From: Pseudomonadota bacterium
GTDB taxonomy: Bacteria; Pseudomonadota; Alphaproteobacteria; Micavibrionales; UBA2020
Assembly (NCBI GenBank): GCA_043806835.1
Contig: JAZDGQ010000007.1
Location: 2,831 to 66,830 of the forward strand
Direction: 5' to 3'
Length of the DNA stretch: 64,000 nt
The translations under genes and the position numbers were made by a program. This document shows positions 29,729-40,958 of this stretch, in pieces. Below the pieces are notes generated by a model that searched no databases, had not been told where the DNA came from, and was given only the letters and a program-made list of their open reading frames with translations. Within the stretch, counting starts at the first letter, position 1. Each line of letters opens with the position of its first letter.

Positions 29729-30286
29729 TCAGCGATCCATCGCGAGGCGGGAGAGTTTCTCGATTTCCTTCTGCACCATCTTTTCGATGATGACGGGCAG
29801 GTTCCGGTCGATCCAGATTTTGATCATCGGCCTCATCAGTTCACGGGTCATCTCTTCAAGGGTCACCTTTCCCACATGCCCCGCCTCCTCGACGGCGATA
29901 TTCCCTTCCAGAAGTTTCGAGAGCGTTTCAGCCGCAGCCTCCGCCGTTTGCGCGGATATCAGATCGTCTTTTTCATCTGCCACGGGTTTTTCTATCATTT
30001 CTATCTTCGCGGGCGGCGGCGGTTTCACAGGCTGCTTCGGTTCAACCTTGTCAACCAGATCCAGAATCTCCACATCCACCGCCGGTACAGGTGCAGGCCT
30101 TGGAACAGGCTTTTGAACCGCAACCGGAGGAGGTGGAGGTGGAGGTGGTGGTGGTGGTGGTGGTGGTGCGGCTTGCATGACATCTGCAGGCTTTGCCCCG
30201 CTGTCAACATCCTCGGAAATAATCTGACGGATAGATTCCAGAATTTCCTCGATAGACGGCTCTTGCTCTGTCTTTGTGTCTGCCAT
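29729..30286 (-). CDS. popZ: PopZ-like pole-organising protein (DUF2497)
   Basis: MADTKTEQEPSIEEILESIRQIISED matches the Caulobacter PopZ N-terminus (…QEPTMEEILASIRRIISED). There is a proline-rich linker (14 consecutive Pro) and a conserved C-terminus LEEMTRELMRPMIKIWIDRNLPVIIEKMV. Confidence 0.75.
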   Translation of the reverse strand: MADTKTEQEPSIEEILESIRQIISEDVDSGAKPADVMQAAPPPPPPPPPPPPPPVAVQKPVPRPAPVPAVDVEILDLVDKVEPKQPVKPPPPAKIEMIEKPVADEKDDLISAQTAEAAAETLSKLLEGNIAVEEAGHVGKVTLEEMTRELMRPMIKIWIDRNLPVIIEKMVQKEIEKLSRLAMDR

Positions 30287-30685
30287 GGCCAAGTATTCAC
30301 TCGTTTCGTTAGAAAATCAGGATACCTGAGAGGCTAGGATATTGTAATTGAAAAAGCGAGTCAGTTTATTCGCCTGTCACAGGAATCTTCTTATATTCGT
30401 ACAATGATATGGACAATGAAAAAACGGCATGCTCCCATCGGAAAAGTTAAAATCAAGCTCTGGAAGAAGCGCCGGAGGAAGTTGGGTCACACAATATTCT
30501 CAACAGGTTCTTCCCCTCCACCTCAAGCTGGGATAAGGATTCCCCTCAAGACCCGATCTGACAGCGCGGGGGGGTGGACTGTCCGATCCAGCTTGCCTTT
30601 CCGCAATATTATCACAACGCAAGGCCGCAGAATCAGATGTGATTAACTATTAGACTTTGCTTTTTTTTTCGTGTATCAACACCAT

Positions 30686-31865: not shown

Positions 31866-32573
31866 CTACCCCGTAAAACTCAGCAACCCCAGCGATTTGA
31901 AGCTGATATGGCCGTTTTGAGAAATAATCAGGTGATCGTGGACGAGGATGTCCAGCGCAGCGGCGGCCTTGATGACTTCCTCCGTCATGGCGATATCGGA
32001 ATCGCTGGGATTGGGATCGCCGCTCGGATGGTTGTGGACGAGGATCATCGCCGTCGCCCCCAGTTCCAGCGCGCGCCTGACGATTTCACGGGGATAGACG
32101 GGCGTATGATCGACGGTGCCCATCTGCTGCACTTCATCGGCCATCAGCTGGTTTTTGCGGTTGAGAAACAGGACGCGGAAATGCTCGCGCTTTTCGTGCG
32201 CCATGGAGACATGACAATAATCAATCAGCTTCTGCCATGAACTCAGCATCGGCTTTTTCTCGATGTCATTCCGAAGCATCCGGCGGGTGAGCGCATGCAC
32301 CGTCTTTAAAACCACCGCCGAATTTTCGCTCAGGCCATTCACTTTCTTCAGATCGGCCAGGCTTGCGCCCATCACGCCGGAGAGGCCGCCAAACTCTTTC
32401 AGCAATTGCTTGGCCAAAGGCTTGACGTCGCGGCGAGGAACGGCGGCGAACAAAAACATTTCCAGCAGTTCATAGTCCTGGAACCCGTCAGCGCCGGATT
32501 TCAGAAAACGCTGCCGCAGCCGGTCGCGGTGGCCGGAATGGGGAAGCTCTGGTTTTGCGGAAGTTTCAGGCAT
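31866..32573 (-). CDS. radC: RadC-family JAB-domain protein
   Basis: GHRDRLRQRF...ELLEMFLF N-terminus and JAMM motif ILVHNHPSGDPNPSDSD. Confidence 0.85.
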   Translation of the reverse strand: MPETSAKPELPHSGHRDRLRQRFLKSGADGFQDYELLEMFLFAAVPRRDVKPLAKQLLKEFGGLSGVMGASLADLKKVNGLSENSAVVLKTVHALTRRMLRNDIEKKPMLSSWQKLIDYCHVSMAHEKREHFRVLFLNRKNQLMADEVQQMGTVDHTPVYPREIVRRALELGATAMILVHNHPSGDPNPSDSDIAMTEEVIKAAAALDILVHDHLIISQNGHISFKSLGLLSFTG

Positions 32574-33390
32574 AGGGCGGCTTCATGTACCCGTTGGGCG
32601 AGAGGGTGAAAATCTCAAACCCGGTTTCGGTCACGGCCAGCGTGTGCTCGAACTGCGCGGACAGGGACCGGTCTTTCGTCACCGCCGTCCAGCCGTCGTT
32701 CAGAACCCTGGTCTCCCAGCCGCCGGCGTTAATCATCGGCTCGATCGTGAAAAACATCCCCTTTTGCAGGGGCATTCCCTCCCCGGCCTTGCCGAAGTGC
32801 AGGACGGAGGGGGGGCAATGAAACGTCCTGCCGAGGCCGTGGCCGCAGAAATCGCGCACGACGGAAAATCTTTTGCTCTCGGCGTAGCTCTGGATGGCGT
32901 GGCCGACATCGCCCAGCGTCGCGCCCGGCTTCACCGCCCGGATGCCCTGCATCGTCGCTTCATAGGTGGCGTCCACCAGCAATCTGGCCTTGGCCGGGAT
33001 TTTCTCTCCCGCGTAATACATGCGGCTGGTGTCGCCATGCCATCCTTCCAGAATGGCCGTCACGTCGATATTGACGATGTCCCCCTCTTCCAGTTTCCTG
33101 TCGCACGGGATGCCGTGGCAGACGACGTGGTTGATCGAGGTGCAGATAGACTTCGGAAAGCCCCTGTAATCGAGAGGCGCCGGAATGGCGTTATGGTCGA
33201 GGATGAAGTCATGGCAGAGCTTGTCGAGGCGCTCCGTCGTCACGCCCACCTGCACATGCGGCGTGATGAAGTCGAGCACTTCCGCGGCAAGCCTTCCCGC
33301 CTTCCGCATCCCGTCGAAATCCTCCGCGCCGTGAAGGATGATTTCTCCTTCATCATCGGATTTATATGTTAAACTTTTGTCCCCGTTCAT
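32566..33390 (-). CDS. map: type I methionine aminopeptidase
   Basis: ATG 33390 (MNGDK...). Motifs VCHGIP, GDIVNIDVT, HGDTS, FCGHGLG, FTIEPM and QFEHT. Confidence 0.9.
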   Translation of the reverse strand: MNGDKSLTYKSDDEGEIILHGAEDFDGMRKAGRLAAEVLDFITPHVQVGVTTERLDKLCHDFILDHNAIPAPLDYRGFPKSICTSINHVVCHGIPCDRKLEEGDIVNIDVTAILEGWHGDTSRMYYAGEKIPAKARLLVDATYEATMQGIRAVKPGATLGDVGHAIQSYAESKRFSVVRDFCGHGLGRTFHCPPSVLHFGKAGEGMPLQKGMFFTIEPMINAGGWETRVLNDGWTAVTKDRSLSAQFEHTLAVTETGFEIFTLSPNGYMKPPYA

Positions 33391-33469
33391 CAAATATCCC
33401 TTAGAGTCAAACTGAAGCGAAACCCTGCGAAAAACAAGCGAAAACTGCACACCCTGCGCGAAATGACAA

Positions 33470-34438
33470 TCAGGGTTTTTTCCGCAAACCGCTAAACTCC
33501 TCCGAGGAGAAAAGATCCCCGTTGCCCGCCATGAATTCCTCCACCGTATCCGCCGGCGCCAGTCGTGACAGATAAGGCTCGAGCGTCGAGGGATAGAGAG
33601 GCTGCTGGCTGAAATTTTTGGCGCTGATAAGGCTGAGCGCGAAGACCCCGCCCATCACGCCCGCCGCGAAAAACCCCGCCGAAACCAGCCGCCGCCGTTC
33701 GGTCATCAGCGTGGCCAGCGTCAGGCTGCCGTAAAGCAGGAAGGCCAGCAGGATGAAATTGATTCCATAGGTCGTCAGAAGGGCGACCCAGTTTTCATTG
33801 GTCAGGAAATCGACATACGATTCCACATACCAGGCAAGCGTTCCCGCAATCGTGTACAGACATACCATGGCCGCATGGCTCCTGAAATACGCCTTATGCC
33901 TGGTCAGACGTCCGGCGACCGACCATATCGCCGACCAGAGAACGATGACGCCGACGGTTCCGGCACCGGCACCCGCCAGAGCCAGTCCGATATCCTCCGT
34001 CCAGACTTCCAGATACGCCCAGCCAAGTGCAAGCGCCAGAGCCAGAAGAAAACTCGCCCAGACGTTGGGCGCGCGCGACAGCCACAAAAAAACAGAATTT
34101 GTCTTCTGCAGCCGGATCGTGGCGGAAACAGGATGCTCCGGAGCGTAAACGCGCACTTCCGTCTGGCCGAGGCAGAGCGTGTCTCCCGACCGGAGAGGCG
34201 CGCGCTGGCCGTGCTGCAACATTCCGTTGACGATGAAACCGTTTTCGCTGCCCAGATCATGGACGAAAAAACACCCGCTGTCGCATTCGATCCGGAGTTC
34301 CTGCGGGCTGACGTGTGGGTCGTTCAGGATCACGTCGTTGCAGAATCCGCGTCCGACTGTGAAAGGAAATTTTTCGACAACGCGGTAAGACACATGCCCG
34401 TCGTTGGCCTGTGCCCGGATTTCAAGGATGAGCTTCAA
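33470..34438 (-). CDS. FHA-domain protein with C-terminal polytopic membrane region
   Basis: FHA signature FTVGRG...NDVILNDPHVSPQELRI...HDLGSENGFIVNG, then ~6 TM helices. The likely start is TTG 34438, 8 nt after GGGAAGGAGGAA (the ORF-track GTG is at 34468). Overlaps the upstream protease gene. Confidence 0.7.
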   Translation of the reverse strand: MKLILEIRAQANDGHVSYRVVEKFPFTVGRGFCNDVILNDPHVSPQELRIECDSGCFFVHDLGSENGFIVNGMLQHGQRAPLRSGDTLCLGQTEVRVYAPEHPVSATIRLQKTNSVFLWLSRAPNVWASFLLALALALGWAYLEVWTEDIGLALAGAGAGTVGVIVLWSAIWSVAGRLTRHKAYFRSHAAMVCLYTIAGTLAWYVESYVDFLTNENWVALLTTYGINFILLAFLLYGSLTLATLMTERRRLVSAGFFAAGVMGGVFALSLISAKNFSQQPLYPSTLEPYLSRLAPADTVEEFMAGNGDLFSSEEFSGLRKKP

Positions 34439-35768
34439 GGGCGGTTCCTCCTTCCCTGCCTGCGGCACCGGCCGGACGCGGCCTGATCTCGCTCATGAAT
34501 TTTCGCGCCAGAGCCAGCGCGTTCTGTTTCGAAACCCCCTGCGCCGTCAGGGTCGCGATGAACCCCTTTTTGCCCGCGCCCACCATCGCCATATGCAGAT
34601 TCATGTCGAAAATCTTCGGATATTTTTTATACTGGCGGACGCAGAAGCTGGATTTCCATCGGAAACCCGCGATATCGACGAAGCGGCTGTTGCAGTCGAA
34701 ATTTGTGACGTTCCCTTCCTTGGCGTTTTGAAAATCCCCGAGGAAGTATCCGAACAATCCCTGATAAAAATTGTAAAAACGCACCGGATTGAGAGTCTCC
34801 TTGCCCACCGTATAGTCATAGCGGTAGAGGAGAACGCCCGTCTCAAAATCGTTGTCGAGATACATACGATCCTGACTGGAGCATGTGGAGAAAAAATACT
34901 GATAGGGGTCTTTCTCCTTGTGATTGATGCCTCCCCAGCATTTCAGCACATCATGGATGCGCCCCGGCGCCGTCACGGGGCCGAAGGGCACGCTCTCCCA
35001 TTTTTTCTTCAGCAGGGCGCTGATATTGCGTTCCTGACCGGCCAGCAGCTGATCCTGAATATGGTCGTCTGCATGGTTGATAAAATCGTAGCCAGCGGGC
35101 TGCCGGAGATAGTCGGCCAGCAGCCGGCGCAGCGGCTCGACGGGAACGAGAAAGCTGATCTGGTTTCCGGCGGTGGCGACGTTGATTCCGGCGACGCTGC
35201 CGTCATGGCCGATGGCGGGCCCTCCGCTCATCCCCGGATTGAGCGCGCCGGAAAAATGTATCTTGTCGGTAAAGCTCTCTTTCGACAGGCCGCTGTAGGT
35301 GCCTTCGATGATGGTGAACCCGATGTCACGCGGATTGCCCAGCGCATATAGTCTGGCTCCCTTCTCCTGTTTCGACGTGCCGAGCGACAGCCATGTCCTG
35401 CCGGGACGATCCATCTTCACGATGGCCAGATCATGCACCACATCCGCCGTCAGGACTCTCAAGCTCCCTTCCCCGCCCTTGTCATGCAGGAACTCGATAC
35501 GGTTGCTCCCGGCGCGCTGAAGGGCTTCGGCGACGACGTGATAGTTGGTCGCGATCAGGCCGTCCTCCGTGAACTGAAACCCGGAGCCGATGCTGGTCTT
35601 TTTACCGGAGGTCAGATCGATGACCTGCACCTGATACACAGCATCGCCATAAGCCTGATAAAGCCGCTGCGCCTCGTCCGGCGCGGGGGCTTCCCCCGCC
35701 CCTGCCGGAAAAACGGCCAGTACTGCGGCCAGCATCATGCCCGCAAAAAATATAAAAAAGTGACGCAT
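34422..35768 (-). CDS. secreted trypsin-like (S1/S1C) serine peptidase with unrecognised ~220-aa C-terminal domain
   Basis: Signal peptide MRHFFIFFAGMMLAAVLAVFPAGAG. His box GLIATNYHVV, DLAIVK, and Ser box GALNPGMSGGPAI. No PDZ-like sequence recognised after the protease domain. Confidence 0.75.
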   Translation of the reverse strand: MRHFFIFFAGMMLAAVLAVFPAGAGEAPAPDEAQRLYQAYGDAVYQVQVIDLTSGKKTSIGSGFQFTEDGLIATNYHVVAEALQRAGSNRIEFLHDKGGEGSLRVLTADVVHDLAIVKMDRPGRTWLSLGTSKQEKGARLYALGNPRDIGFTIIEGTYSGLSKESFTDKIHFSGALNPGMSGGPAIGHDGSVAGINVATAGNQISFLVPVEPLRRLLADYLRQPAGYDFINHADDHIQDQLLAGQERNISALLKKKWESVPFGPVTAPGRIHDVLKCWGGINHKEKDPYQYFFSTCSSQDRMYLDNDFETGVLLYRYDYTVGKETLNPVRFYNFYQGLFGYFLGDFQNAKEGNVTNFDCNSRFVDIAGFRWKSSFCVRQYKKYPKIFDMNLHMAMVGAGKKGFIATLTAQGVSKQNALALARKFMSEIRPRPAGAAGREGGTALEAHP

Positions 35769-36417: not shown

Positions 36418-37587
36418 ATGTCCTTGCCTCATCTCCCTCCCCATGCCTCCGCGCTGCTGGCGCTCGCAGACGGAACGGTATTCTGGGGAAAGGGCGTCGG
36501 GGCGGAAGGCGTCACCGGCGGCGAAGTTTGCTTCAACACCTCCATGACCGGATACCAGGAAGCCCTGACCGACCCTTCCTACGCAGGGCAGATCATCACA
36601 TTCACCTTCCCGCATATCGGCAATACCGGTGCGAACGACCGTGACAATGAATCGGCCAGACCCTTCGTGAAAGGACTGATCCTCCGCACCGGCATCACAG
36701 CCCCCTCCAACCACCGGTCGGAACAGCCTTTCGACCTCTGGCTGAAGGAACGCAAACTGACGGGCATCTGCGGGATCGACACGCGGGCGCTGACGCGGCG
36801 TCTGCGCGATCACGGCGCGCAAAACGGCGTGATCTGCTTTTCTTCCGGACGGAAATTCAATCCGGAAGAACTTACCGCGCAGGCCAAAAACTGGCCGGGC
36901 ATGGACGGGATCGACATCGCCAGAACCGTTTCGACCGGAAAAATCTATCAGTGGCACGAACAGCCCTCCCCGGTAAAAGGCCATGTCGTCGTCCTCGACT
37001 ACGGCGTCAAGCGCAGCATCCTGCACTGCCTCGCCGCAGAGGGGCTCAGGCTGACGGTCGTTCCCTGCACCACGCCCGCCGACGAAATTCTGACGCTGCG
37101 CCCGGACGGGATATTCCTTTCCAACGGCCCCGGCGATCCGGCGGCCACCGGCGTTTACGCCGTCCCCGCTATCCGGAAACTCCTGGAATCCGGGCTGCCC
37201 CTGTTCGGCATCTGCCTCGGCCATCAGCTTCTGGCGCTGGCGCTCGGCGGCAGGACGGCCAAGCTTCCATTCGGTCATCGCGGCGCCAATCATCCGGTCA
37301 AAAATCTGGAGACCGGAAAGATAGAGATCACCAGCCAGAATCACGGCTTCCACGTCCTTCCCGCCAGTCTTCCGGACACCGTCGAGATCACGCACACAAG
37401 CCTGTTCGACGGCACGAACGAGGGTCTCCGCCTGAAGGGACGCCCGGTCTTTTCCGTGCAGTACCACCCGGAAGCCTCTCCGGGGCCGCAGGACAGCCGT
37501 CCCCTTTTCGGGCAATTCAGCCGGTACATCGCGGACGTCATGGATTTTCAGGAGGGGAAGCACGCATGCCGAAACGCACCGACATAA
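36418..37587 (+). CDS. carA: carbamoyl-phosphate synthase small (glutaminase) subunit
   Basis: ATG 36418. Motifs [30 protein letters not shown] (catalytic Cys) and [12 protein letters not shown]. Confidence 0.9.
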
Positions 37588-40500
37588 AATCCATCGTCAT
37601 CATCGGCGCGGGCCCCATCATCATCGGCCAGGCCTGCGAATTCGACTACTCCGGAACGCAGGCCTGCAAGGCTCTGAAGGACGAGGGATACCGGGTGATC
37701 CTCGTCAATTCCAACCCCGCCACCATCATGACCGATCCGGACTTCGCCGACGCGACCTACATCGAGCCCCTCACGCCGGAAATTGTGGCGAAGATACTCG
37801 AAAAAGAGAGGCCGGACGCGCTCCTGCCCACGATGGGCGGGCAGACGGCGCTCAATATCGCGCTGGCGCTGAGCACGGACGGCACGCTGGACAGGCTCGG
37901 CATCGAGCTGATCGGCGCAAAGAAAGAGGCCATAGAGCTGGCCGAAGACCGCGAACTCTTCAGGGAGACCATGAAGAAACTCGGTCTGGAATGCCCGAAG
38001 AGCAAGGCGGCGAAAAGTCTCTCTGCGGCGCTGGAGGCCCTGGAGCTCACGGGACTTCCCGCGATCATCCGCCCCTCTTTCACGCTCGGCGGCACCGGCG
38101 GGGGGATCGCCTATAACCGCGACGAATTCGAATCCATCGTCAAATCCGGCCTGCAGGCCTCTCCCGCCCGGCAGATCCTCGTCGAGGAATCCGTCATCGG
38201 CTGGACAGAGTACGAGATGGAGGTCATGCGCGACAAGGACGTCAACTGCATCGTCGTCTGCTCCATCGAGACCATCGACCCGATGGGCATCCACACGGGC
38301 GACAGCGTCACCGTCGCGCCCGCGCTCACCCTCACCGACAAGGAATATCAGGCGATGAGGAACGCCTCGATGTCCATCCTGCGCGGGATCGGCGTCGAAA
38401 CCGGCGGCTCCAACGTGCAGTTCGCCGTCAATCCCGCCAACGGGCAGATCGTCGTCATCGAAATGAACCCCCGCGTCAGCCGCTCCTCCGCGCTGGCCTC
38501 CAAGGCCGTCGGCTTCCCTATCGCGAAAGTGGCGGCGAAACTGGCCGTCGGATACACGCTCGACGAACTGCAGAACGACATTACCGGCGCGACCCCCGCC
38601 TCCTTCGAACCCTCCATCGATTACGTCGTCACGAAAATCCCGCGCTTCAACTTCGAGAAGTTCCCGGGCACCGAGGAACGCCTGACCACCTCCATGAAAT
38701 CCGTCGGGGAGGTGATGGCGATAGGCCGCACGTTCGAGGAATCCCTGCAGAAGGCGCTCTGCTCGCTGGAAACCGGGCTGACAGGGCTGAAGGAGATGAA
38801 CCTCGTCCCGGAGGGCAAGGAATTCCATCCACAGTATATTCTGGCAGCCCTGTCCCAGCCGCGCCCGGACCGCATTCTCGTGATCGCGCAGGCACTCCGC
38901 CACGGCTTCTCGACAGAAGAAATACATGACGCCAGCAAGTTCGACCGATGGTTTCTGGAGCGCATCCAGACCCTCGTCGTTCACGAGGAGAAGCTGAAGG
39001 AAAAGGGTCTTCCGAAAACTTACTATGACTGGATGGAAACCAAGCAACTTGGATTCTCTGACGCGCGCATCGGGGAACTCACGCACAAGAGCGAACGGGA
39101 TGTTGCCGGGCATCGGCGCAAGGCGGGCGCAACCCCCGTTTTCAAGCGCGTGGACACCTGCGCGGGCGAATTCGCCTCCAACACGGCCTATATGTATTCG
39201 ACGTATGAGTTTCCCTGTGTGTCTCCCCGGCAGGCTACCCCTCATCCTAACCTTCTCCCGCAAGGGGAGAAGGGACAGAAAGCCTCTTCTCCCTCTCCCC
39301 TCGCGGGAGAGGGGCGGGGTGAGGGGGATTCTTCCGACGAATGCCGCCCCTCCGCGAACAAAAAAGCGATCATCATCGGCTCCGGCCCCAACCGCATCGG
39401 CCAGGGGATCGAGTTCGATTACTGCTGCGTCCATGCCTCCTTCGCACTGCGCGAAAAAGGCATCGAAAGCATCATGATCAACTGCAATCCGGAAACGGTG
39501 TCCACCGACTACGACACATCCGACCGGCTTTACTTCGAACCCATCACCGCCGAAAAGGTGCTGGACATCATCCATGCCGAACAGGCGAACGGCGATATGC
39601 TCGGCGTCATCGTGCAGTTCGGCGGCCAGACCCCTCTCAAGCTCTGCCGGGAGCTTGAAGACGCGGGCGTCAAAATCCTCGGCACCAGCCCCGACGCCAT
39701 CGACCTCGCCGAGGACCGGGAACGCTTTTCAGAACTGATCCGCAAAATAAAGCTGAAACAGCCCGTCAACGGCGTCGCCCTCACCGCCGGGGAAGCGGAG
39801 GAGATCGCCGCAAAGATAGGCTTTCCCATCGTGCTCCGCCCCTCCTACGTCCTCGGCGGGCGCGGAATGGAAATCGTCCATGACATGCAGGCGCTCAGGC
39901 GCTACATCAAAACCGCCATACAGGTTTCCGGCGCGACCCCGCTGCTCATCGACCAATACCTGCAAAACTGCATCGAGGTGGACGTCGATGCGCTCTGCGA
40001 CGGCAAGGACGTCTTCATCGCCGGAGTGATGGAGCATATCGAGGAGGCGGGCATCCATTCCGGGGACAGCACCTGCTCGCTGCCACCCTATTCGCTGCGC
40101 CCGGAGATCGTCACCGGCCTGAGGGAACAGACGGCGGCGCTGGCCAGGGCGCTGAACGTCGTAGGGCTGATGAACGTGCAGTTCGCCGTCAGGCAGAGCC
40201 GCGACCCGTCCAATCTCGACCATTACGAAATCTACGTTCTGGAGGTCAATCCGCGCGCCTCGCGCACGGTGCCCTTTGTGGCGAAAGCGACGGGTCTTCC
40301 CGTGGTCAGGGCCGCGACGCGCCTGATGACCGGCGAGAAAATTCCGGAGCTTCTCTCCGGAGGCGTGCTTCATCACCGGACATTCAGCCATGTGGCGGTG
40401 AAAGCCCCCGTCTTTCCCTTCGAACGCTTTCCGAAGGTGGACGTCATCCTGGGTCCCGAAATGAAATCGACCGGAGAGGTCATGGGAATCGACCGGGACT

Positions 40501-40958
40501 TCCGCCGCGCCCTCGCCAAGGCCCGCATCGGGGCGGACTCCAAACTCCCCCTTTCCGGCACTGTCTTTATTTCCGTCAGGGATTCTGACAAAAATGCGAT
40601 TATCCCGCTGGCCGCACGGCTTTCCGATATGGGCTTCAGGATCGTCGCCACCGGCGGCACCGCCAGACATCTCGTGGAGGCCGGAATCCGCGCCCATAAG
40701 GTCAACAAGGTGCACGAAGGCCAGCCCCATGTCGTGGACGCCATGATAAACGGGGACATAGATCTGATGCTGAACACGACCGAAGGCCCGCAGGCTGTCG
40801 CTGACAGCTTTAACTTGCGTCGGGCGGCATTGCAGAATAAAATAACTTACTACACGACGATCTCCGGTGCCAAAGCGGCTGTCGATGCGATAGTGGCTTT
40901 GAGGCAGACGGAGCCTTTCGATGTGAAAACGCTGCAAGAATATTTGAAGACAGCGTAG
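37566..40958 (+). CDS. carB: carbamoyl-phosphate synthase large subunit (carries a 43-codon in-frame insertion)
   Basis: [37 protein letters not shown], with the second-half repeat [23 protein letters not shown]. 1130 aa. 22-bp overlap with carA. Confidence 0.92.
39210..39338. repeat. nested palindromic repeat element inserted in frame in carB
   Basis: CCTTCTCCC-gcaa-(G)GGGAGAAGG (39251-39273), CTCTCCC-ctcgc-GGGAGAG (39293-39311), and outer arms CCCCTCA/TGAGGGG. Translates as ...[13 protein letters not shown]...[13 protein letters not shown]..., between the conserved YSTYE and ECRPS...[16 protein letters not shown]. Confidence 0.6.

Follow-up and report, generated by a model that had tools for sequence, protein, structure and literature searches.

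A conserved gene pair coding for an HtrA-like protease and an FHA-domain membrane protein, a candidate trans-envelope module of Proteobacteria and Omnitrophota

Closest described systems

The described systems closest to the locus reported here are the HtrA-type envelope proteases, on the one hand, and the membrane-associated FHA proteins of mycobacteria, on the other. Our subject is a pair of adjacent genes on the minus strand of a 64,000-nucleotide stretch of contig JAZDGQ010000007.1 (the window, hereafter), which originates from a metagenome-assembled genome (MAG) of the alphaproteobacterial order Micavibrionales. The upstream gene codes for a predicted exported serine protease, and the downstream one for a membrane protein that combines an N-terminal FHA domain with five predicted transmembrane (TM) helices, designated below as the FHA-5TM protein. 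We propose, with a probability of roughly 0.45, that the two products constitute a self-contained two-protein module of the inner membrane, coupling periplasmic proteolysis to cytoplasmic phosphothreonine recognition. A first-pass annotation of the window had suggested a trans-envelope signalling or regulated-proteolysis module; the analysis described here supports this suggestion, the contact between the two proteins and the signalling or proteolytic step being what we infer from it.

HtrA, DegP, DegS and AlgW possess the same exported trypsin-fold domain, with a His-Asp-Ser triad, as the window protease (matches to HtrA1, DegP-like proteins and AlgW at E values of 4e-21 to 1e-14). However, the PDZ domains of that family are replaced here by a domain with a predicted Mog1p/PsbP-like fold and two probable disulfides, and the HtrA-family NCBIfam cut-offs are not reached (75.3 bits against 416.2 for TIGR02037, and 42.9 against 423 for DegS). 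The locus resembles the DegS-RseA couple in two respects, namely, the non-catalytic C-terminal domain of the protease, placed as a sensor or regulator, and the inner-membrane neighbour, analogous to RseA in its cytoplasmic binding domain. The difference resides in the partner, which is a single-pass anti-sigma substrate with a linked extracytoplasmic function (ECF) sigma factor in RseA-type systems, but an FHA protein with five TM helices in the present case. Pfam revealed no anti-sigma domain in the latter, and no sigma-factor gene is conserved near the examined loci. MarP (Rv3671c) is also a PDZ-less HtrA-like protease located at the outer face of the cytoplasmic membrane, but its TM helices are fused N-terminally to the protease, whereas here they are carried by a separate, coupled protein together with the FHA domain. 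Membership of the window protease in the MarP family was rejected, the match to NF033740 being partial (E 3e-12, 46 bits against a cut-off of 250).

With regard to the C-terminal domain of the protease, the Mog1p/PsbP-like proteins (PsbP, LpqN/Apa, DcrB, the DUF1795 proteins Eag/SciW, and Tsi3) would share with it the alpha/beta sandwich topology predicted here. They serve as extracytoplasmic binding modules, and the fold is often associated with membrane-anchored complexes (PMC7716261). The domain differs from them in having no detectable sequence kinship and in its own signature, composed of KCWG, FC.R.YK.YP..YD and four Cys. No fusion of a Mog1p/PsbP fold to a protease was found among the PDB matches or in the literature searched.

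As for the membrane partner, the mycobacterial proteins FhaA/Rv0020c, FhaB/FipA and the Rv1747 ATP-binding cassette (ABC) transporter likewise tie a canonical phosphothreonine-binding FHA domain to a membrane or envelope function, and the NCBIfam FhaB/FipA model partially matches the FHA-5TM protein (E 3e-7). In contrast to these proteins, the latter joins an N-terminal FHA domain to a bundle of five TM helices, is not part of a kinase/phosphatase operon, and has a periplasmic protease as obligate partner; moreover, the pair is present in diderm Proteobacteria and Omnitrophota, but not in Actinobacteria. Identity with FipA was ruled out by score and context. Two secretion-system families were also considered and rejected for the partner, namely, TagH from type VI secretion systems (T6SS; TIGR03354, E 8e-12, but 45.7 bits against 120.25, over model positions 1-112 of 420) and SctD/YscD of the type III secretion system (T3SS; NCBIfam SctD, E 0.12, FHA part only), and the annotated neighbours of the pair included no T6SS or T3SS genes. 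An anti-phage defence system was rejected as well, PADLOC having returned just a generic match for the protease (retron RT-Protease_XI, E 1.6e-13) and none for the partner, in a housekeeping context. In the literature searched, we found FHA-trypsin fusions and other FHA membrane proteins, but no description of a protease paired with an FHA-5TM protein; a Bacteroides FHA-FHA-trypsin fusion, for instance, has a different architecture (PMC2605481). The pair had not been recognised as a described system in the first-pass annotation, and neither this search nor PADLOC produced a match for it.

Gene arrangement and conservation of the pair

Both open reading frames (ORFs) were confirmed where they had first been placed, the protease gene lying upstream of the FHA-5TM gene. 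The features of the two genes and of their junction are as follows.

34422..35768, minus strand: gene for the predicted exported serine protease, 448 residues, ATG start and TGA stop (ORF with a Pfam Trypsin_2 match, E 7e-23)
33470..34438, minus strand: gene for the FHA-5TM membrane protein, 322 residues, TTG start and TGA stop (33470-33472)
34422..34438, minus strand: 17-nt overlap between the protease stop (TGA at 34424-34422) and the FHA-5TM start, indicative of translational coupling
34445..34456, minus strand: purine-rich Shine-Dalgarno-like sequence GGGAAGGAGGAA, inside the protease ORF and 6 nt before the TTG, read directly from the sequence

The window protease is 100% identical to an NCBI protein (P0001) annotated as 'serine protease', from a MAG labelled Pseudomonadota bacterium. 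The second ORF had been listed with a GTG start at 34468, which is probably not the real one. The TTG at 34438 is very probably the start because the Shine-Dalgarno-like GGGAAGGAGGAA precedes it by 6 nt, because the NCBI call (P0121) corresponds to the same 322-residue product in length and sequence, and because homologues begin with MKLILEI at this position instead. Given the protease stop codon at 34424-34422, this start results in an overlap of 17 nt. Two early observations on the junction, the overlap of the protease 3' end with the start region of the next gene and a strong Shine-Dalgarno sequence for the second gene within the protease ORF (34456-34445), are therefore both accurate.

A scan of GTDB species representatives with an alignment of the C-terminal domain yielded 22 loci, all from MAGs (Rhodospirillales, Micavibrio, other Alphaproteobacteria, and one Omnitrophota), and each of them has, directly downstream and on the same strand, an ORF matching both the FHA and the TM parts. 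Five distant members of the family, one of them on a 4.7-Mb contig, are also directly followed by an FHA gene, of 318 to 326 codons, whose TM part is homologous to that of the window. Conversely, look-ups starting from two divergent FHA-5TM proteins led in both cases to a protease gene directly upstream, with a 4-nt overlap. A metagenome set, collected with a degenerate DNA pattern for C.R.YK.[YF]P.L[YF]D, comprised 120 loci, 117 of which encode the C-terminal domain, and the partner is encoded downstream wherever the contig leaves room for it. The module idea had initially been made dependent on co-conservation of the two genes, and the pair is kept throughout (22/22, 5/5 and 114/114 loci, respectively).

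Start and stop codons overlap in 18 of the 22 GTDB loci (by 4 nt, as ATGA, in 12 and by 1 nt in four), and by 1 to 25 nt in 98 of 117 further loci, mostly by 10, 13 or 4 nt. Judging from gene order and junctions, the pairing of the protease and FHA-5TM genes is obligate and translationally coupled. The distance matrices of all segments of both proteins correlate (r 0.84 to 0.95 over 101 pairs), so that there is no sign of partner swapping. The flanking genes are of housekeeping type and vary by lineage, which argues for a self-contained cassette. In an exhaustive profile search, the protease family proved to number no fewer than 610 clusters (at 50% identity), of which 417 had E<=1e-10; nearly all of these proteins are about 415 to 445 residues long, with the domain at positions ~225-430, and thus display the same architecture. 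The named members belong to MAGs of Alpha- and Gammaproteobacteria and of Omnitrophota.

With regard to taxonomic assignment, the pair was noticed on a 3.9-kb contig (DASPMW010000051.1) binned as 'Patescibacteria group bacterium'. The C-terminal domain encoded there shares 54% identity with that of the window, in the same range as alphaproteobacterial relatives, and the contig is probably mis-binned. Several independent MAGs carry the Omnitrophota assignment, which looks genuine.

Domain composition of the two proteins

The protease can be divided into the following parts.

35694..35768, minus strand: signal peptide, residues 1-25 (MRHFFIFFAGMMLAAVLAVFPAGA, followed by G), with predicted Sec export and signal peptidase I cleavage (residues 3-16 reach a hydropathy of as much as 2.6 and precede a PAGA-G site)
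35118..35648, minus strand: S1 (HtrA-like) protease domain, residues ~41-217, to which the Pfam and NCBIfam matches are confined
35538-35540, 35430-35432 and 35226-35228, minus strand: codons of His77, Asp113 and Ser181, respectively, the S1 protease triad
34479..35117, minus strand: C-terminal domain, residues 218-430, with a predicted Mog1p/PsbP-like fold (AlphaFold2 model and Foldseek) and no Pfam or PDB sequence match

The N-terminus, MRHFFIFFAGMMLAAVLAVFPAGA followed by GE, combines a hydrophobic core with an AxA-type cleavage site, and the N-terminus is comparably hydrophobic in each of the 38 aligned protease relatives. Pfam Trypsin_2 covers residues 61-195 (E 7e-23, 82 bits), and HtrA1 ranks first among the PDB sequence matches (E 4e-21, query residues 47-242), while the NCBIfam HtrA, DegP, DegS and MarP models match residues ~41-219 only, far under their cut-offs. 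His77, Asp113 and Ser181 are invariant, both in the close relatives (38/38) and in distant representatives (110/110). On the strength of these sequence features, the protease is catalytically intact and predicted to be exported. The first-pass annotation had already pointed out a signal peptide, with which the hydropathy and cleavage-site predictions agree, and the boxes TNYHVV, DLAIVK and GMSGGP, all of which are present with their invariant triad residues (H77, D113, S181).

Residues ~218-448 gave no Pfam, NCBIfam or PDB sequence match. A Pfam scan of 26 C-terminal domains at E<=10 returned nothing, neither PDZ nor PsbP, Mog1, DUF1795 or LpqN; Pfam found no PDZ in the window protease at E<=1, and a profile search of PDB sequences with the C-terminal domain gave nothing meaningful. 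The AlphaFold2 model of the domain, built from a 26-sequence alignment, has a predicted local distance difference test score (pLDDT) of 90.2 and a predicted template modelling score (pTM) of 0.85, and consists of an antiparallel sheet together with a long helix at the N-terminus and two others. When this model was compared with the PDB by Foldseek, the top ~37 consecutive matches belonged to one fold class (best E 4e-5, probability ~0.9-1.0), represented by PsbP, mycobacterial LpqN and Apa, the DUF1795 chaperones SciW/EagT6, the immunity proteins Tsi3 and TplEi, and yeast Mog1. The model thus suggests a new sequence family with a Mog1p/PsbP-like fold rather than a PDZ variant. This domain of about 210 residues corresponds to the ~220 residues that had originally been left unassigned in the place of PDZ domains; a well-known family, such as a PDZ variant, had been considered as the ordinary explanation for them, but no catalogued family is matched and only the predicted fold resembles that of the Mog1p/PsbP-like proteins.

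In the alignment of the 38 close relatives, the four Cys of the domain (C277, C296, C359 and C376) are invariant and the motifs KCWG and WK..FC.R.YK.YP..YD are conserved. W278, R378 and D388 are nearly invariant positions of the domain. Among 110 distant representatives, 30% to 47% identical to the window protein, R378 and D388 are kept in 109 and the pattern of four Cys in 97. Losses of Cys are mostly pairwise, affecting either 277 and 296 or 359 and 376, and these residues lie on neighbouring strands of the AlphaFold2 model, as would suit two disulfides and, accordingly, a domain located in the oxidising periplasm. The domain is probably stabilised by these disulfides (C277-C296 and C359-C376). 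Its early description as Cys- and Tyr-rich was overstated for Cys, of which there are four only, although all four are invariant. Of note, the distant proteases of the Gammaproteobacteria/Omnitrophota type stop where the final helix of the C-terminal domain does, their terminal residue being a conserved Trp (…IEW, …VSW), whereas the alphaproteobacterial proteases, including that of the window, carry instead a variable Pro/Ala/Lys-rich extension.

The FHA-5TM protein comprises three parts.

34109..34438, minus strand: cytoplasmic FHA domain, residues 1-110 (Pfam FHA at residues 37-101)
33614..34072, minus strand: five predicted TM helices, residues ~123-144, 150-179, 183-213, 217-242 and 247-275 (AlphaFold2 and hydropathy)
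33473..33613, minus strand: conserved C-terminal tail, residues 276-322, with the pattern F..QP.YP.TLEPYL...FM..N..LF in the partner alignment, predicted to be periplasmic

The N-terminal FHA domain, correctly recognised from the outset, matches Pfam PF00498 over residues 37-101 (47.2 bits, the cut-off being 20.7; E 3e-12). Over 28 partners, the phosphothreonine-contact positions are almost fully conserved, with G29-R30 in 28/28, S44 in 25/28, H47 in 27/28 and N66 in 27/28, and the window protein keeps G29-R30, S44 and N66. The spacing of the contact residues matches that of Rad53 FHA1. The closest solved FHA domain is that of Rv0020c/FhaA (E 4e-12), followed by those of EmbR, GarA and OdhI, all of which are true phosphothreonine readers. 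These features point to a phosphothreonine reader that retains the canonical binding residues.

The AlphaFold2 model of residues 112-322 (pLDDT 78.7) displays five long helices, followed by a tail with short, less confident helices, and hydropathy analysis of the membrane part reveals four strongly hydrophobic segments and one moderate segment. According to the positive-inside rule, the basic loops RLTRHKAYFRSH and TERRR are both cytoplasmic only in a five-helix topology with the N-terminus inside and the C-terminus outside, rather than with the approximately six helices first counted. In this topology, the conserved C-terminal tail would therefore be periplasmic, along with the acidic loop between helices 1 and 2 and the conserved DFLTNENW loop between helices 3 and 4, these parts making up a conserved face of acidic and aromatic character. 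The TM bundle belongs to no Pfam family, and Foldseek found no PDB fold match for the model of the five helices plus tail (best E 2.8). The tail, of about 47 residues, harbours invariant or nearly invariant positions (F276, P280, Y282, L286, P288, L290, F302, M303 and F310), which are kept in distant partners also, whereas its extreme C-terminus is variable; its short helices reach pLDDT values of 56 to 75 when modelled alone.

Possible function, genomic context and significance

In the two-protein module that we favour, the protease and the FHA-5TM protein would be made in matched amounts, as implied by the overlap of their genes, and would assemble into one complex. The PsbP-like domain would dock on the FHA-5TM protein, at its periplasmic face or tail, and would thereby hold the protease at the inner membrane and gate its activity. 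On the other side of the membrane, the FHA domain would bind a cytoplasmic protein phosphorylated on threonine by a Hanks-type kinase with its gene in another part of the genome, and periplasmic proteolysis and cytoplasmic Ser/Thr phospho-signalling would thereby be coupled across the membrane. The direction could be either way, the phospho-state controlling the protease or the state of the protease controlling the cargo of the FHA domain. Stable docking is favoured because the Mog1p/PsbP fold is a binding module in PsbP, in the Eag chaperones, which grip TM helices, in Tsi3 and in LpqN. Further, a docking surface fits the tail better than a bare cleavage site would, since conserved positions are distributed over about 35 of its residues, and several of those, aromatic, Pro or Leu, are invariant. 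A more specific, inside-out version, in which the FHA domain senses the phosphothreonine mark, the five-helix bundle relays it and the docked periplasmic protease is switched on or off, with the PsbP-like domain as coupling element, appears rather doubtful to us.

Several observations weigh against the proposed module. No Hanks-type kinase or PP2C phosphatase was found by phmmer in the window (E<=0.1), in agreement with the first-pass annotation, or in about 150 loci, with a PknB kinase domain and PstP as queries and the search covering local DNA; the phospho-ligand is therefore hypothetical. The window protein alone has Glu at position 47, which is the structural His of the SxxH motif in 27 of the 28 partners. 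(This codon is located at 34298-34300 on the minus strand, and the change from His to Glu could be lineage-specific or an assembly error.) Some FHA-fold domains, such as those of SctD/YscD, bind unphosphorylated partners. TM helix 3 is just moderately hydrophobic (about 1.2 on the Kyte-Doolittle scale), and if it did not span the membrane, the tail would be cytoplasmic. The fold call for the C-terminal domain is based on a model, with TM-scores of 0.26 to 0.49 (~0.35 to 0.42 for the best matches), identities of 8% to 17% and root-mean-square deviations of 7 to 15 Å. In a mirror-tree analysis, partial correlation failed to mark the PsbP-like domain and the partner's periplasmic face as the parts that co-evolve (all partial r values between 0.15 and 0.27). 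Lastly, all named relatives come from MAGs or metagenomes, and none of them was identified as a cultured organism.

The main rival to a stable complex is a cascade analogous to DegS-RseA, a reading that we regard as unlikely, though not negligible. The FHA-5TM protein would then be a substrate, whose tail or loops are cut by the protease once the PsbP-like domain has sensed a periplasmic cue, and its further degradation would free the FHA-held phosphoprotein into the cytoplasm, resulting in outside-in signalling. Such a role would suit an exported protease of the same clan as DegS and AlgW, with an intact triad and a non-PDZ sensor domain standing in for PDZ, as well as an obligate partner possessing a cytoplasmic protein-binding domain and a conserved, exposed tail that is poorly ordered alone (pLDDT 56-75). 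However, this partner has no anti-sigma or known output domain, neither a sigma factor nor a site-2 protease is linked to it, and the conservation of some 35 tail residues, with invariant aromatic and Pro positions, exceeds the needs of a cleavage site. The variable extreme C-terminus renders recognition of a C-terminal motif in the manner of DegS unlikely, and the widespread start/stop overlap suggests a matched stoichiometry that an enzyme-substrate pair does not require.

The pair could also represent a membrane-tethered quality-control or processing protease that does not depend on phospho-signalling, with the FHA-5TM protein as anchor or adaptor and its FHA fold as a structural or oligomerisation module whose ligand is not phosphorylated, as in SctD/YscD; comparable protease-adaptor pairs are Prc-NlpI and CtpA-LbcA. 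In line with this explanation, which seems improbable to us, no kinase or phosphatase is linked in the ~150 loci, the pair sits among housekeeping genes, and Pfam Yop-YscD_cpl also matches the partner (E 2e-11). Besides, 3 of the 28 partners have G or D instead of S44, and D, G or H occupies this position in a small number of sequences of another partner alignment. Against it stand the full phosphothreonine-binding set (GR, SxxH, NG), kept with canonical spacing in nearly all members, and the best-scoring solved relatives, which are true phosphothreonine readers and not SctD (NCBIfam SctD, E 0.12). The idea that the two proteins have unrelated functions in a shared operon, or that the FHA protein is a TagH- or SctD-like accessory of a secretion system adjacent to the protease by chance, is already disfavoured and very improbable. 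In its favour, one may invoke the weak NCBIfam matches to TagH (E 8e-12) and SctD (E 0.12), which do not extend beyond the FHA part, as well as two flagellar genes, flgK and flgL, located about 5 kb from the pair in the window. Yet the TagH score, 45.7 bits over model positions 1-112 of 420, is far under the cut-off of 120, no T6SS or T3SS genes accompany the pair among its annotated neighbours, and the two genes are adjacent in 100% of cases over three phylum- or class-level groups while other neighbours change, and co-diverge at r ~0.9.

With regard to the genomic context, the neighbours in the window are YqeY and CarAB upstream, and Map and RadC downstream. Elsewhere, GGDEF/EAL, histidine-kinase and MarR genes are found at the distant loci, and a subgroup of the metagenome loci has trpS, rpe and a TonB receptor gene. 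In the window, the pair is followed on its own strand by map (methionine aminopeptidase; 32566-33450, minus strand) and radC (31866-32573, minus strand), the two overlapping by 8 nt. About 80 nt lie between the pair and the likely ATG of map (33390), no convincing terminator was found after the pair, and co-transcription with housekeeping genes may take place in this genome. In most of the 22 Micavibrio/Rhodospirillales-type loci (for example, L005:5515-6957, minus strand), and in a further locus of this kind (L029:2638-4098, minus strand), the pair has ankyrin-repeat genes on its flanks, where a divergent gene of about 480 codons lies directly upstream, with more of them downstream. As no such gene stands beside the pair in the window or in distant relatives, it was rejected as a third member of the module and attributed to lineage synteny.

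Two other loci of the window deserve mention. A 187-residue protein (29729-30292, minus strand) has a EPSIEEILESIRQIISED motif in its N-terminal part, then 14 prolines in a row, and DUF2497 as its C-terminal domain (E 8e-20), a layout which matches that of the polar organiser PopZ of Alphaproteobacteria. In carB (37566-40958, plus strand), the linker between the oligomerisation domain and the second pre-ATP-grasp domain includes an in-frame G+C-rich segment of about 45 codons (39216-39366, plus strand). It contains hairpin-forming repeats, such as CTTCTCCCGCAAGGGGAGAAG, with weak partial copies at ~46415 and ~41342, and looks like a palindromic repeat element inserted in frame.

Both HtrA-type proteases and FHA readers have been well studied, each in its own right, but their fixed and translationally coupled pairing across the inner membrane was not encountered in the literature searched. 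The pair unites a periplasmic protease with a membrane partner, and in it two familiar domains are combined with a new domain family and a new TM family. As all members found come from uncultured organisms, there is no genetic handle on it yet; the module is, however, small, self-contained and present in hundreds of lineages, and hence directly testable by heterologous expression. If the coupling is real, two new families would have to be catalogued, a PsbP-like regulatory domain of proteases and a five-helix transducer, and eukaryote-like Ser/Thr phospho-signalling would be linked to envelope proteolysis in Proteobacteria and Omnitrophota. Should the inside-out version prove true, the pair would provide Hanks-type kinase signalling with a new way into the periplasm of diderm bacteria.

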